A stretch of 64,000 bases of DNA from a virus (lineage: Duplodnaviria > Heunggongvirae > Uroviricota > Caudoviricetes). Of the stretch, positions 46,701 to 52,700 are shown piece by piece; the first letter of the stretch is position 1, and each line of letters opens with the position of its first letter. Made by a program: the position numbers. The stretch spans positions 32,001 to 96,000 of the IMG/VR virus record IMGVR_UViG_651053023_000001; one strand, written 5' to 3'.

Positions 46701-49700
46701 ATTTATGCCTTATACGCCGGTGATTTGTCATGGTGGAAGCAATACGGTTCCACCATACCGGGAGGGAGGTTCCGCAAAGTGACAGCCAACCTGGCGGCGG
46801 CGAAATCATTTTCGTTGGAGTACAGGCGATATTGTGGACCGGCGGAAGGGGTAAATAGCGGCGCGCAGGCTATCAGTCTGGCTGCTGAATCAGGGGCTGA
46901 AGTAGTGGTATTAGTCGGCTATGACTGTTCTCTGCAAAACGGCCTTCATTGGCATGGTGCGCACCCTCAAGCCCTACGGAATCCAACGCAGGTGTCTATT
47001 TCAAAATGGCAACAGCAGTTCCTGGATACCCGCAAAAAACACGCAGATTTACATATTTTGAATGCAAGTAGGAGCAGTGCAATTCAATGTTTCCCAAGAA
47101 TAAATTTAGAGGCAGTGATCGCGTTATTATCGTCGGCAGTGGCCCAAGCGCCGCAAACTTTGTTGCGCCGCGCGGAGTGCCGATTATAGCGGTCAATGGG
47201 GCCATCGACTGGCTGAACCGCGCTTCTTATTTTTTCACACTTGATCCATCGCCAGACAATATGCGGCGCGTTGGTCGTGGCCGCCGTCGCCGTGGTGTTT
47301 GTTATTGCATGGCACTACCCGATGTTAAAGAACGTGAAGTCAGAGACGGCATTCTGTGCTTCCGTCGTGTGGCTGAACGCGGCACAGAGCCAAAAAATAC
47401 GAATTCTCCCGAGTGGTGGGCGTGGCGCTGGTCCGCACATTTCGGCCTTTGCGAAGATGAGAATGAAATTGCCAGCGGCAATAGTGCATATGGTGCTCTG
47501 AACCTGGCTTTCCATATCGGATTCAAACATGTAGCCCTGGTGGGCGTTGACGCTACGCAAGAACTACGCGTTCACTCCGGCGGCACGCCAAAAAATCTAA
47601 GTCACCTGCCTTTGTTATTCCAGTCTGCGCGTGAACAGATTGACGTTGTTTCATGCGGGAAAATGGGAGGTATTCCGCAGATGACTCTTAAAGAATGGCT
47701 GAAGAATACATGATGGCACCCACAATTTATCACCGTATCGACGGTACCAAATACAGGAATGTCTGGGTTGTTGGTGATCTGCATGGTTGCTACACCAGAC
47801 TGATGTCCGAACTCCATCGTGTGGATTTTGACCCGGCGCAGGATTTACTGATATCGGTCGGCGACCTTATCGATCGCGGTACTGAAAATGTCGAATGTCT
47901 GGAACTATTGCAGATGCCCTGGTTCAGGGCAGTAGTGGGGAACCATGAGCTGTTGATGCTCGATGCGTTAAGTCCTGATGGCAACGTGAATAACTGGCTA
48001 ATGAATGGCGGTCAATGGTTCTTCATGCTGGACGCTGATCAGGAAATATTAGCCAGGGCGCTGGTGGAGTTGGTAAGACGACTGCCCTATATCATTGAGT
48101 TGAACACCGGGCAAGAAACTATCGTTATAGCCCATGCCGACTATCCGGATAATGAATATCAATTCGGTAAGGAGGTGCCGCTTTTCAACGTTGTCTGGGC
48201 GCGCGAGCGTATCAGTGATTCGATGGATGATATTGGTGGCGAAATTTCGGGCGCAGATCGTTTTATCTTTGGTCACACTCCGGTGAAAAGCCCGAAGACA
48301 TTCTGGAATCAGCAGTATATCGACACTGGTGCCGTATTTTGCGGAAACCTGACATTGATGAAAGTGAAAGGTGATGGTGCAGCATGAAGATTGCTTTAGT
48401 TTTTCGCTCTGGTGGTGACTATAACGCTTCCGATGTGCAGTGGCTGGTTAATCAACTGCCAAAAGGCTATGAAATTATTTGCCTGACAGACCTGAAGCGT
48501 TTACATGTACCTGGCGTCAAAGTTGTCCCATTGATCAACCAGTGGCAAAAGTGCCGTGGCTGGTGGGCGAAAATCGAGTTGTTCCGACCGGATATAACCG
48601 ATGATCTGTTCTATCTGGATTTGGACACGGTTATTGCCGGTGATATACGCCCAATCCTAGAGCATCCACCAACCAGCTTCACCATGCTTAGGGATTTTTA
48701 CCATCCACAATATCGTGGCAGCGGTGCCCTGTGGATACCAAATAGTGTTAAAGCGCATATCTGGAGTTCATTCTGGCAAGATCCGGAAGGTTGGATTTCT
48801 CGTTGTGTCACTACTGAGTGCTGGGGGGACCAGGGGTTCTTACGAAAGGTTATGGGCGATGATACACCAGCATTTCAGGATCTGTATCCAGGATGGTTTG
48901 TAAGTTACAAGGCCGATGTTGTGGAACCTGGTTCAAAATATGCGAGCGCGCGTTACTCCAGGGGGAATGGGGCATTACCAAAAGACTGCCGAATAATCTT
49001 TTTCCACGGCAAACCGCGACCTCGCGAAGTGTCAGAGGATTGGCCTCCCCTTATCAGCTCATTTTTTGAGCGAGAATCAGAATAATATTGCTCTAATAAT
49101 TCCATATTTTTAAAACGTGATGTACACTCATCACGTTTTTTATTAGAGCAATCTACAAGGTGCACTATGTGGCCATTCCGACGGAAATATCACTACTGGC
49201 TGATCGCCTTTGTTACGCCGACCGGCGGTATCAGGCATGTCATCACCAGGTATCGCAACAAGAGACTCACCTTAGCCAGAATTTTACAGGCTGCCATAGG
49301 TGAGGGACTGGATACAAATTGCGTAGTCCTTCCTCCTTCATACTTAGGAAAAATGACCGAAGCACAAGCTAATACGGAACTTTGAAATGAGCACTTCAGC
49401 ACAAAACCAATCAATCGAAAATGTATGTATCCCTGATGTCCTGAATGCCGGTATCCCGGCCATTATCCAGAACATCCGGGCCGCGCAACGCCGCGTTAGT
49501 TGTGATGACCTCACAGCACGTTTTTTTGATAATGCGGTTCAGTCAGCGGAGATGCTTCACGCACAGCTTATTGATGTTTATAACGCAGAAGCTGATAGCC
49601 ATAACTCCCTGGTAGATGCAGCTGAAAATATGCAGTTGGATCTCGGTCTGAAGGGTAAAGAAATTGAAGAGCTTCAGTTGGAAATTGAACATTTGAAACG

Positions 49701-52700
49701 CCAGCAACAGGACGCGATCGACGATGCGACGCATGACGCCAACCAGCGTGCTGATAATGCCGAACGTATAAGCATTGAGCTGGAAACAAAACTCAATGAA
49801 ATGACTGCGATGGTTGAACTGCGGAACTCACAGATTTCAACGCTAAAATCTCAATATAAAGAGATCATGAAACTTGATCCTTTTAACCTTGAGAAACGCT
49901 ATAACAAAGCTAAAAGCGAGCGACAGGAACTGCGTAAGCAGGTCGCCGACCTTAACCAACAGCTCAAAAAAACTATTAAAGATGCAAGCGAGGCGCGCGT
50001 GGCATTTGCTAATAAAAAAGCAGAGGTTACCGCGCTGGTTAATGAGAATGCCAAATTTGCGACGCTCAAGAAGGAAATGTATGGCATTACTGAGCGCCGT
50101 TTCCCTGCAAGCAAACTTCATCCGACGTTAGGGCAAATCTCCTTCTTCCCGCGCCTCCTGGCTTATGGGATCTCATCGCCTAAAGAGTTCAATAACGAGC
50201 GTCCTTATATCGTTTCTAAGCTGGACTTTGCTTATCAGTTCTGCTGCGACATGGGCTATGCCATTGATATCCGAATCAACGAATGGTTGATGCCAAACTT
50301 CCAGCCGTTGGCAATTTTCCGCGAGTTCCAGCCGGAAGGTTGGGTAGAGTTCTTCCATGAATTGATCTGTAAAGAGATGGAAAGCCGTCGCCCGGAATTG
50401 GTCCGTCGAGTTGAGTGGGCGCAAGAGGTTATGTTGGCAGATGCAGAGCTGCCGTTCGAACCGGAATTCATTGATGATCTGGCAACTAAAGGGCTGCATA
50501 CCCTGTTTGATGTGGTTACCCGCCGTCATGAGCAGTTGGTTGTCGAATTGGGTTTAGAGGAAACTGCGGCAAGAAGACTTCTCGATGTTTGCTATGCACG
50601 TAGCGATGCATGGGAAAAAGAGAACGGCGGCACTATTTACGTTCGCTGATAGTTACAGTGTCACTTTTAATGCTGGTGGAGTGCTCCCACCAGCATTTTT
50701 TTCGTCCAATGAGGAGGGCATTTGAGTATTTTCAATAAACACGCACACCATGAACCGCCCCCGGAAATCCTGGAGACTAAACTCCCTGAGAAAGAGGTAA
50801 ACAGGATGACTAAAAATACTCGTTTTTCCCCCGAAGTCCGTCAGCGGGCGATTCGTATGGTTCTGGAAAGTCAGGATGAATATGACTCACAGTGGGCGGC
50901 AATTTGTTCCATTGCCCCAAAGATTGGCTGTACGCCGGAGACTCTGCGTGTCTGGGTTCGCCAGCATGAGCGGGATACCGGGGGCGGTGATGGTGGGCTC
51001 ACCAGCGCTGAACGTCAGCGTCTGAAAGAGCTGGAACGTGAAAATCGTGAACTGCGCCGCAGTAACGATATCCTTCGCCAGGCTTCCGCTTATTTTGCGA
51101 AGGCGGAGTTCGACCGCCTCTGGAAAAAATGATGCCACTGCTGGATAAGCTGCGTGAGCAGTACGGGGTCGGACCGGTATGTAGCGAACTGCATATTGCC
51201 CCGTCAACGTATTACCACTGTCAGCAACAGCGACATCATCCGGATAAACGCAGTGCCCGTGCGCAGCGCGATGACTGGCTGAAGAAAGAGATACAGCGCG
51301 TATACGATGAAAATCACAAGGTATACGGTGTGCGTAAAGTCTGGCGTCAGTTGTTACGGGAAGGTATCAGAGTGGCCAGATGCACTGTGGCACGTCTCAT
51401 GGCGGTTATGGGACTTGCCGGTGTTCTCCGGGGTAAAAAGGTCCGTACGACCATCAGCCGGAAAGCCGTTGCCGCAGGCGACCGCGTAAACCGTCAGTTC
51501 GTGGCAGAACGACCTGACCAGCTGTGGGTGGCTGATTTTACTTACGTCAGCACATGGCAGGGCTTCGTCTATGTGGCGTTCATCATTGATGTGTTTGCCG
51601 GATACATCGTGGGGTGGCGGGTCTCATCGTCTATGGAAACGACATTCGTGCTGGATGCGCTGGAGCAGGCGTTGTGGGCCCGTCGTCCGTCTGGCACCAT
51701 CCATCACAGCGATAAAGGCTCTCAGTATGTGTCACTGGCCTATACGGAGCGACTAAAAGAAGCCGGATTACTGGCATCAACAGGGAGTACAGGCGACTCG
51801 TATGACAACGCGATGGCTGAGAGCATCAATGGTCTTTACAAAGCGGAGGTAATACACCGTAAGAGCTGGAAAAACCGTGCAGAAGTGGAACTGGCCACAC
51901 TAACGTGGGTGGACTGGTATAACAATCGACGATTGCTGGGAAGGCTGGGCCATACTCCTCCGGCAGAAGCAGAAAAAGCTTATTATGCTTCCATCGGAAA
52001 CGATGATCTGGCAGCCTGAGTTCACAGATAAAACACTCTCCAGGAAACCCGGGGCGGTTCACCATGAGAGACATGGAGCCGGGAATGGTCACATAGTCAG
52101 TGGCTATTGATAACCATAAGTGATCACATCTGCCACTGAAATACAAAACATACCGATGATGTTTATTGATGTTTTACAGACATAAAAGTATCAATTTATA
52201 TAAGAGCCTAGTCATCCTACCATCCTGCACTGGAAAATACGAACAAGAAAAAGATAAAACCATCACTTAATATGATATTGATAGTAAAAAAAACCAGATA
52301 GCCAGACAATTAGCATATATAACACTATGAAAATAATATATAAAAAGCGAGTGTGCCTCGACATATAACATGATGCAACTCACAAAAAAAAATAAAAAAA
52401 TTGCAAAATCCGTTTAACTAATCTCAAATATCCGTGAAACAACATGACGGGAGGTAACATGAAAAAGCTAATGTTGGCAATTTTTATTTCTGTATTATCT
52501 TTCCCCTCTTTTAGTCAGTCAACTGAATCACTTGACTCTTCAAAAGAGAAAATTACATTAGAGACTAAAAAGTGTGATGTTGTAAAAAACAACAGTGAAA
52601 AAAAATCAGAAAATATGAACAACACATTTTACTGCTGTGAACTTTGTTGTAATCCTGCCTGTGCTGGATGTTATTAAAAAGCATAGAGGGAATCTTTATT

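Follow-up and report, generated by a model that had tools for sequence, protein, structure and literature searches.

Identity and layout of the locus

The two-gene unit at 49167-50649 of the window (the whole stretch of 64,000 nucleotides that was analysed) has been annotated before: it is pmgR–pmgS, an operon of phage P1 (Punavirus), here in a P1-type phage-plasmid. The explanation that we consider probable as a whole is that of a P1-type operon gated by the C1 repressor, in which PmgR serves as an assembly cofactor that does not enter the virion and PmgS as an early accessory protein that acts on DNA. The genes, operators and knockout phenotypes of the locus have been published, and their recovery here is nothing new for P1 biology; new in this analysis are the extent of the PmgS family, its (HhH)2 module, its unmatched middle domain and the early or accessory gene contexts of its members.

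The DNA of P1 and P7 is 99.2% identical to the locus over 1671 of 1671 nucleotides, colinear with P1 82115-83785, and all 19 phage records matched by the locus are P1-like (98.6-99.5% identity). The basic 72-aa protein encoded by pmgR (shtA in P7; 49167..49385, +) is identical to P1 PmgR at 72/72 residues (100%) and matches phrog_3177 (E = 4e-47); the gene runs from an ATG at 49167 to a TGA at 49385, with a Shine-Dalgarno sequence AAGGTG at 49156-49161. The 420-aa product of pmgS (shtB in P7; 49387..50649, +) is identical to P1 PmgS at 417 of 420 residues (99.3%), the three differences being amino-acid changes, and matches phrog_1660 over its full length (E = 2e-195). At the TGA-A-ATG junction the pmgS start at 49387 lies one base past the pmgR stop, and the two genes are therefore probably translationally coupled. 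The two open reading frames and their coupling thus stand as the initial annotation described them, at the same coordinates; its description of their function as unknown does not, since they are pmgR and pmgS.

The corresponding P1 unit (GenBank AF234172, 82152-83714, with operators OpmgRa/OpmgRb, formerly Op86a/b) shares genes, order, spacing, operators, promoter and terminator with the window, and P7 (AF503408) carries an identical unit named shtA-shtB. Upstream lies pmgQ (48384-49085) and downstream the start of pap (50722), which in the window, unlike P1, is broken at codon 10 by a 4.9-kb IS3-bounded sta1 transposon. The remaining 5' stump of pap (50722..50750, +; TTG start, recognized by P1 homology and cut in codon 10) forms the downstream boundary of the unit: homology to P1 ends at 50750, where an IS3-family inverted repeat beginning TGAACCGCCCC starts, and returns at approximately 55629. 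The transposon (50751-55628) begins 102 nucleotides past the pmgS stop codon, so the unit does lie directly upstream of it, as first noted. An Rfam scan of 48500-51000 gave no match.

Repressor control and flanking structures

The P1 GenBank record (AF234172), from which the operator and promoter assignments, including C1 binding at both sites, are taken, annotates OpmgRa and OpmgRb as "controlling expression of pmgR and pmgS" from a sigma-70 promoter, PpmgR, and lists no late promoter. OpmgRa (formerly Op86a; ATTGCTCTAATAATTCC; 49087..49103, +; P1 annotation, offset +43049) matches the C1 consensus with three mismatches, all within its 3' tail, and OpmgRb (formerly Op86b; 49136..49152, -), also a consensus match, is inverted relative to it; the two hold inverted copies of the core ATTGCTCTAATAA, with the arms complementary at 13 of 13 positions, such that OpmgRa forms a perfect 13-nt inverted repeat with 49140-49152. 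In the whole window the 17-mer C1 consensus has nine matches, versus 0.22 expected. The predicted PpmgR (49088..49116, +) has its -35 hexamer, TTGCTC (49088-49093), overlapped by OpmgRa, and its -10 hexamer, TAAAAC, at 49111-49116. A simple sigma-70 consensus scan did not pick it up, and it is thus regarded as a weak promoter that is predicted, not mapped. No -22 box of P1 late promoters is found upstream of pmgR.

The facing operators, 49 bp apart from centre to centre, enclose a terminator-like 11-bp hairpin, AAAACGTGATG/CATCACGTTTT, followed by a run of T (49112..49145, +; -13.4 kcal/mol, z = -5.1; -26.9 kcal/mol, z = -8.1 with the operator arms included). Folding from 49123 onward gives no such structure, and transcripts started at PpmgR would hold only the 3' half of the hairpin. 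Probably, it terminates pmgN-pmgQ, the operon upstream, and would insulate pmgRS from read-through. The operator-hairpin-operator layout recurs in L004, a P1-like element with no more than 53% identity in PmgS, where a hairpin of different sequence stands at the same place; another element used for comparison, L003, has an analogous 17-bp palindrome. Other C1-controlled early operons of P1 (pmgN-pmgQ with Op83; pmgT with Op88) resemble pmgRS in having a 17-bp C1 operator that overlaps a sigma-70 promoter, whereas the pair of facing operators around a terminator-like hairpin distinguishes pmgRS.

In the prophage state, C1 would occupy the two inverted operators, which bracket and overlap the weak sigma-70 promoter; once C1 is inactivated, the operon would be transcribed as an early unit without the Lpa-dependent late promoter, and transcription would stop at the strong terminator past pmgS. 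This intrinsic terminator (50669..50704, +; an 11-bp G+C-rich stem at 50669-50697, then T7; -18.1 kcal/mol, z = -3.4) is kept in P1 with one base differing in the loop. The proposal of a self-contained, repressor-gated unit flanked by an operator-like site and a strong terminator is accordingly borne out by the control annotated in P1, by the recurrence of the layout in L004, and by the two C1 operators and the terminator themselves.

PmgR

In-frame deletion of pmgR in P1 abolishes infectious virions, leaving unjoined tails and incomplete heads visible by TEM, and pmgR supplied in trans rescues the deletion (PMC9024508). These phenotypes contradict, for pmgR, the initial suggestion of a host-takeover or anti-defence function. 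The protein itself was not detected in the P1 virion proteome (PMC9024508) and is absent from the near-complete cryo-EM model of P1 (PMC12810830). The phenotype is compatible with a defect in head completion as well as with one in DNA packaging; proheads and tails were likewise obtained with the ΔpacA control (PMC9024508). Most likely, PmgR acts as a cofactor of assembly or of DNA packaging rather than as a structural part. Searches of Pfam, NCBIfam, PADLOC and PDB sequences with PmgR returned no match. Among the P1-like lineages sampled, PmgR-like genes occur only directly upstream of PmgS-like genes (7/8 lineages), never alone.

Lambda gpW (68 aa) is a small factor of head completion and head-tail joining. 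PmgR resembles gpW-type factors in its small size and in the failure of heads and tails to join when it is lost, but it has no detectable sequence relationship to them and its promoter is early and C1-controlled, not late. The idea of PmgR as a gpW-like connector protein was rejected, since Prt, PmgC, gp7 and gp24 between them already account for the entire P1 connector (PMC12810830). An early repressor-controlled promoter is odd for an essential assembly factor. Essential, non-virion and early-expressed, PmgR is among the last essential P1 genes without an explanation.

Dispensability of PmgS and its annotation

P1 ΔpmgS plates normally and shows normal anti-restriction on EcoA, EcoB and EcoK hosts, which covers type I restriction only; a CRISPRi screen scored pmgS as non-essential; and PmgS is absent from both the virion proteome (PMC9024508) and the cryo-EM model (PMC12810830). 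Membership of PmgS in the Dar anti-restriction system of P1 was rejected, both Dar features failing: restriction is normal in ΔpmgS on the three hosts and the protein is not in virions. Among 80 natural contigs, all near-identical P1 relatives from a PmgR-seeded scan of viral contigs, pmgS is intact in 75, and those in which it is deleted or frameshifted keep pmgR intact. In P1, pmgS is among the extremely conserved genes.

An essential small upstream gene coupled to a large dispensable downstream gene could form an antagonist pair, in which PmgR would be needed only to restrain PmgS, a DNA-binding rod that would otherwise disturb packaging or head completion, so that pmgR would be conditionally essential and antidote-like. 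Consistent with such an arrangement are the position of PmgR-like genes directly upstream of PmgS-like genes, the absence of PmgR from the virion, and the outcome of polar dCas12a CRISPRi on pmgR, which gave an EOP of ~0.9 and a score of non-essential where the clean in-frame deletion is lethal. However, the same screen missed four other known essential genes, which its authors blame on ineffective roadblocks; the natural contigs lacking pmgS still carry an intact pmgR; and homologues of PmgS in lambdoid prophages have no PmgR beside them, indicating that PmgS is not intrinsically harmful there. An antagonist pair is therefore very unlikely. A related proposal, in which the PHROG-1660 family would represent an overlooked type of temperate-phage effector, early and associated with DNA, that joins a coiled coil to (HhH)2, with PmgR as a P1-lineage-specific partner or antagonist, and in which the lethality of ΔpmgR would result from unrestrained or mis-targeted PmgS on the DNA to be packaged instead of a structural loss of head completion, is judged quite unlikely.

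The databases imply that both genes are morphogenetic or structural, PmgS being labelled "PmgS-like head morphogenesis" (PHROG 1660) or, as P7 shtB, "sheath contraction". Besides these GenBank and PHROGs labels, the reading can draw on the location of the unit among P1 genes that received pmg names by position, and on the morphogenetic phenotype of ΔpmgR (PMC9024508). As applied to PmgS it is largely refuted already: the label has been propagated across the family (phrog_1660 is matched by PmgS and by 36/36 diverse members), yet ΔpmgS plaques are normal, the protein appears in neither the virion proteome nor the cryo-EM model, and the prophage homologues adjoin recombination genes rather than structural ones. 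The label is a propagated guess that goes back to the "putative morphogenetic function" in the P1 record. We do not think that PmgS has a role in head or sheath morphogenesis, and we regard the reading of both genes as morphogenetic or structural as highly improbable. Through PHROGs and RefSeq the label, which has no experimental basis, has spread across a family that counts at least 120 clusters and occurs in lambdoid prophages as well as P1-like plasmids, and it is contradicted by knockout, proteome, cryo-EM and gene-context data.

Domain architecture of PmgS

Remote homology and structure prediction place a degenerate (HhH)2 domain at the end of PmgS, in which the initial annotation recognised no motif. 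The AlphaFold model reproduces the long N-terminal coiled coil and the aromatic-rich C-terminal domain described there, the latter being compact and reaching a pLDDT of 91.8 when modelled alone. In that model and in the invariant columns of the family, residues 15-232 (49429..50082, +) comprise an N-terminal helix that bears the conserved motif RRVxxDDLxxRF and then the coiled coil, with two long helices predicted at residues 41-153 and 166-232 and a break at a conserved KE..LDP..L elbow (residues 158-168), of which the family consensus keeps ELKxL...P..LKK. Residues 236-347 (50092..50427, +), a beta-sheet with helices, contain the motifs that the family conserves best, RINEWLxP and (H/R)PxLxxRxxWA; no structural relative of this middle domain (pLDDT 92 in the C-terminal model) was found. 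Residues 348-412 (50428..50622, +) form the (HhH)2 domain, of the type found in the RNA polymerase alpha-CTD and the RAD51 N-terminal domain. They have the five-helix (HhH)2 fold.

The PmgS family profile matches alpha-CTD and RAD51 chains at E ~ 1e-7, and among 36 family members 12 match PF03118 (best E = 5e-7) and 11 match PF14520 (best E = 2e-7); the PmgS of the window alone matches neither at E <= 0.1. The modules of the predicted protein rest on profile and structure comparison. The GIG hairpins are degenerate in P1-type PmgS (ELGLEE, YDMTPE) and canonical (KGIGxKTA) in distant relatives. DNA binding by P1 PmgS appears uncertain because the Gly-hydrophobic-Gly hairpins, which contact DNA phosphates, have been lost. 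Matches of the domain also include NusA AR and SAM; folds of the (HhH)2/SAM-like kind serve in protein-protein contacts as well. Compared with the (HhH)2 domains of RNA polymerase alpha-CTD (PF03118), the RAD51/RadA N-terminal domain and the NusA acidic repeats, that of PmgS comes without a polymerase or recombinase core; unlike them, it follows a coiled coil of 220 residues and a middle domain that has no match, and in P1 it has lost its hairpin glycines.

Kinship with SMC, Rad50, LmuB or JetC ATPases was rejected: only the coiled coil matches, at 16-18 bits versus cut-offs of 300-1000, and the model has no Walker A/B ATPase head domain flanking the coiled coil. Matches to TPR, Lpp, keratin and SMC-type families (Pfam, NCBIfam, PADLOC, PDB sequences) are compositional coiled-coil noise.

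Gene neighbourhoods and proposed role of PmgS

A word-indexed homologue search made both families appear confined to P1-like plasmids; by exhaustive profile search, the PmgS family is much wider, with ~120 representative clusters at 50% identity. Within temperate phages its members occupy early or accessory regions or those for recombination, and none of 12 lineages sampled places them beside head or tail genes, neighbourhood being circumstantial evidence. In Aeromonas prophages the order is exonuclease VIII and RecT, then PmgS-like, then Dam and RdgC, between the CI repressor and the integrase; in a P22-like prophage, RecT, Gp157 and PmgS-like stand together in the early-left arm; PmgS-like is also met next to a CI-like repressor; and in six divergent P1-like elements PmgS-like is downstream of DarB-like genes, near Lpa, C1 and Tad2-like genes.

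The adjacency of homologues to RecT, exonuclease, RdgC and methylase genes and to DarB-proximal early regions suggests that PmgS may have an early role in recombination or genome processing, with the DNA of the phage or of the host as its target, the DNA binding being predicted from its fold. The long coiled coil would presumably serve as a dimerisation rod, followed by the domain of novel fold and by a C-terminal (HhH)2 module of a kind that may bind DNA non-specifically or dock onto partner proteins. The (HhH)2 module and the recombination-gene neighbours together provide a concrete hypothesis for pmgS, as an early DNA-binding accessory protein.

The same contexts bear on the suggestion that both genes together make up an early module for host takeover or anti-defence. 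Its early, C1-gated expression, the dispensability of PmgS in laboratory hosts and its absence from virions would suit such a module, as would the positions of its homologues: some occupy the accessory early arm in lambdoid prophages, and others lie immediately downstream of DarB-like genes for anti-restriction, sometimes with Tad2-like or Sequestin genes close by. However, pmgR is needed for virion production (PMC9024508), and the unit as a whole is therefore not an accessory module, so that in practice the suggestion applies only to PmgS, which as a coiled-coil/HhH protein might, for example, block a host defence that senses DNA or a complex for recombination or repair in the host. For PmgS, it is countered by normal anti-restriction of ΔpmgS against EcoA, EcoB and EcoK, by a lack of matches to PADLOC or known anti-defence families beyond coiled-coil noise, and by proximity to Tad2-like genes in only 2 of the 12 contexts. 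An anti-defence module is thus unlikely, and an early accessory role on DNA is preferred for PmgS.

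Identity and regulation of the pmgR-pmgS operon

The initial annotation described a self-contained unit of two coupled ORFs, lying between an operator-like site and a strong terminator, and each of these elements is borne out. The ORF listing and direct reading place pmgR from an ATG at 49167, with AAGGTG ahead of the start, to a TGA at 49385 (72 codons), and pmgS from an ATG one base past the pmgR stop, at 49387, to a TGA at 50649 (420 codons). The region from 49050 to 50720 (1671 nt) is 98.6-99.5% identical to 19 P1-like phage genomes and matches both P1 (AF234172) and P7 over its full length; PmgR is identical to the P1 protein at 72 of 72 residues and PmgS at 417 of 420. 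The ORFs are named pmgR and pmgS in the P1 record, and the same genes are shtA and shtB in that of P7. The genes 5' of the operon are P1 pmgP, ppp (a lambda-like Ser/Thr phosphatase) and pmgQ, and the 3' neighbour of pmgS in P1 is pap. The locus, how it is regulated and its phenotypes have all been described before, and the evidence best supports that established account: a C1-controlled early operon, the first gene of which is needed for joined infectious particles and the second of which is dispensable.

Two matches to the 17-bp P1 C1-operator consensus lie upstream of pmgR: OpmgRa (Op86a) at 49087-49103 on the plus strand and OpmgRb (Op86b) at 49136-49152 on the minus strand, with exact, perfectly inverted 13-nt cores (ATTGCTCTAATAA). 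The consensus has 9 matches in the window against 0.22 expected; the seven others, at 14621, 16292, 32321, 35597, 35608, 45462 and 56108, each with 0-2 mismatches, are consistent with this element having the complete P1 complement of early promoters under C1 control. Two of the matches overlap as an inverted pair at 35597-35624. The annotation of AF234172 states that OpmgRa and OpmgRb together "controls expression of pmgR and pmgS", and predicts a sigma-70 promoter, PpmgR, under OpmgRa (-35 at 49088-49093; -10 at 49111-49116). A P1 late-promoter -22 box was sought upstream of pmgR and not found.

OpmgRa and OpmgRb enclose an 11-bp hairpin with a T run after it (-13.4 kcal/mol, z = -5.1), and 3' of pmgS there is a strong intrinsic terminator with an 11-bp stem (50669-50697) and T7. 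The ORFs, the C1-operator matches, the inter-operator hairpin and the terminator therefore make the initial annotation accurate as an observation. Both operators and the inner hairpin form one large palindrome, which as RNA has a folding energy of -26.9 kcal/mol (z = -8.1); RNA beginning a few bases past the annotated PpmgR -10 holds only the 3' half of the palindrome and is without significant structure. The hairpin and T run probably stop read-through out of pmgN-pmgQ, with transcripts from PpmgR escaping; pmgRS would then be insulated from the genes before it and gated by C1 alone. The operator-hairpin-operator design is conserved, as two divergent P1-like elements show: L004, with a PmgS 53% identical, has ATTACTCTAATAA, then a hairpin of differing sequence, then an inverted GTTGCTCTAATCA, and L003 has at the corresponding place a perfect 17-bp palindrome that differs in sequence.

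A second terminator-like hairpin followed by T7 lies inside pmgS (49499-49526), in a 25-nt direct repeat 80% identical to the 3' half of the inter-operator hairpin (49117-49141). Because it overlaps the codons of the most conserved N-terminal motif of the PmgS family (RRVSCDDLTARFFDN), it may be either a coincidence of coding or an internal attenuator. When the host lacks hfq, pmgS is reported to be over-induced at 10 and 20 min and pmgR to be reduced (bioRxiv 10.64898/2025.12.28.696737); opposite responses within one annotated operon hint at post-transcriptional control that differs between the two genes, or at an additional transcript.

Phenotypes and the morphogenesis label

Gonzales et al. 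2022 (PMC9024508) deleted the pmg genes of P1 in frame: ΔpmgR P1 yields zero infectious virions, pmgR supplied in trans restores plaques, and PmgR is undetected in the virion proteome and has no HHpred relative. Because the ΔpacA control had a similar appearance, the published phenotype cannot tell head completion from a failure of packaging; pmgR is one of the last unexplained essential genes of P1. Both genes belong to the 21 "extremely conserved" genes of 77 P1-like phage-plasmids. Both also scored as non-essential in a dCas12a CRISPRi screen, in which silencing is polar, and the tolerance of polar silencing of pmgR, set against the lethality of its clean deletion, hints at an antagonist pair in which PmgR restrains PmgS. 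However, missed genes are common in CRISPRi, and the authors of the screen count pmgR among five "missed" essential genes.

ΔpmgS P1 shows normal plating and normal anti-restriction on EcoA/B/K hosts, and PmgS is missing from the P1 virion protein list (PMC9024508). In the 2026 cryo-EM model of P1 (PMC12810830), the connector consists of Prt, PmgC, gp7 and gp24, and ten other proteins make up the baseplate; the paper mentions neither PmgR nor PmgS. These knockout, proteome and cryo-EM data contradict the database labels of head morphogenesis or sheath contraction for PmgS, including that of PHROG 1660 ("PmgS-like head morphogenesis"; category head and packaging), which goes back to the P1 record's "putative morphogenetic function" and has spread through a sizeable family as a mis-annotation. 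A morphogenetic role for PmgS is very unlikely. On a rival reading, the one suggested by the initial annotation, PmgS may act in anti-defence or host takeover, since the restriction assays cover type I systems alone.

The PmgS family

In an exhaustive profile search the family has 120 representative clusters (defined at 50% identity) at E <= 1e-3 and 85 at E <= 1e-10, most of them proteins of 350-470 aa matched over their full length. All 36 of the diverse members aligned belong to PHROG 1660, some of them encoded by prophage genes adjoining those for RecT and an exonuclease. The alignment has four conserved elements: an N-terminal RxxxDDL motif; an ELKxL...P..LKK elbow within the coiled coil; EWLxP and (H/R)PxLxxRxxWA in the middle domain; and, in distant members, a canonical tail, L..L...G..TL.DV...L...KGIGxKTA..I. 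Pfam matches within the alignment include RNA_pol_A_CTD (12/36) and HHH_5 (11/36), and against solved structures the family profile matches the RNA polymerase alpha-CTD (E = 1.2e-7) and the RAD51 N-terminal domain (E = 3.3e-7). AlphaFold models full-length PmgS with long helices at 41-153 and 166-232 (pLDDT 72), and its C-terminal 196 residues with confidence (pLDDT 91.8, pTM 0.86). The simplest reading of PmgS is an early accessory protein that associates with DNA, in which a coiled-coil rod and a novel domain are combined with a C-terminal pair of helix-hairpin-helix motifs, (HhH)2, the last being a new domain assignment for this protein. Direct family searches with PmgS brought up nothing beyond coiled-coil noise.

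None of 12 sampled contexts has head or tail genes adjoining the PmgS relative. Six more P1-like elements, in which PmgS identity falls as low as ~20%, carry the gene downstream of a DarB-like methylase-helicase of 2250-2300 aa and of a series of small genes, often close to Lpa, pacAB-sized genes and the C1 repressor; in two elements Tad2-like (L010, L094) or Sequestin (L010) genes are nearby. In L003, L004, L009, L010, L094 and L095 the pmgO/P-ppp-pmgQ-pmgR-pmgS block is directly 3' of the DarB-like gene, whereas in P1 the block is preceded by tail genes 24-7-25-26, which are absent there in these six. Aeromonas chromosomal prophages carry a PmgS-like gene between a CI-type repressor and integrase, in the order exonuclease VIII, RecT, a 362-aa gene of unknown function, PmgS-like, Dam or MT-A70 methylase, RdgC. 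A P22-like prophage has its PmgS-like gene after RecT and Gp157, on an arm diverging from cro-O-P. Other neighbours are a CI-like repressor, NinH with an RNase T-like exonuclease, and a cytosine methylase.

The PmgR profile finds a small gene directly 5' of the PmgS homologue in 7 of 8 P1-like lineages sampled and has no match over the non-P1 contexts sampled. The PmgR-like protein of L010 (9577-9867; 87 aa) has a hydrophobic, transmembrane-like C-terminal tail. In the same element the PmgR-like and PmgS-like genes lie ~130 nt apart, with a G+C-rich terminator hairpin between them (9860-10000), so pmgR and pmgS are not always a single operon.

The 420-aa pmgS is retained in 75 of 80 IMG/VR contigs with identical pmgR and disrupted in five by deletion, frameshift, stop or insertion. 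Beside intact pmgR, L076 (3083-3626) has lost ~1.1 kb of pmgS by internal deletion, with the terminator retained; pmgS in L016, L075, L079 and L045 shows frameshifts (possible sequencing errors), a stop codon, or divergence past nt 655.

Upstream genes and the transposon in pap

The early genes at 47087-49085 look enzymatic, not morphogenetic, and pmgP, ppp and pmgQ are all non-essential in P1. PmgP is weakly matched by MptE-like and alpha-2,3-sialyltransferase families, Ppp is a Ser/Thr phosphatase of NinI-like type, and PmgQ belongs to a PHROG with the annotation glycosyltransferase.

Downstream, pap starts with TTG at 50722; homology to P1 stops at 50750, in pap codon 10, and restarts at ~55629. 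The interruption is a composite element of ~4.9 kb (50751-55628) with inverted IS3-family ends (TGAACCGCCCC...), flanked by a 3-bp CCA duplication, within which lie IS3-family transposase ORFs (to 52019), sta1, the ORF for the ST-Ia heat-stable enterotoxin (52444-52677), and IS66-family pieces (from 52972). A search of PLSDB for the pmgS-IS junction gave no match, and among 5426 complete E. coli genomes a single one has a similar junction (94%). The sta1 module is 99.5% identical in the pig ETEC plasmids CP057411 and CP057076; an enterotoxin gene is here carried by a P1-type phage-plasmid.
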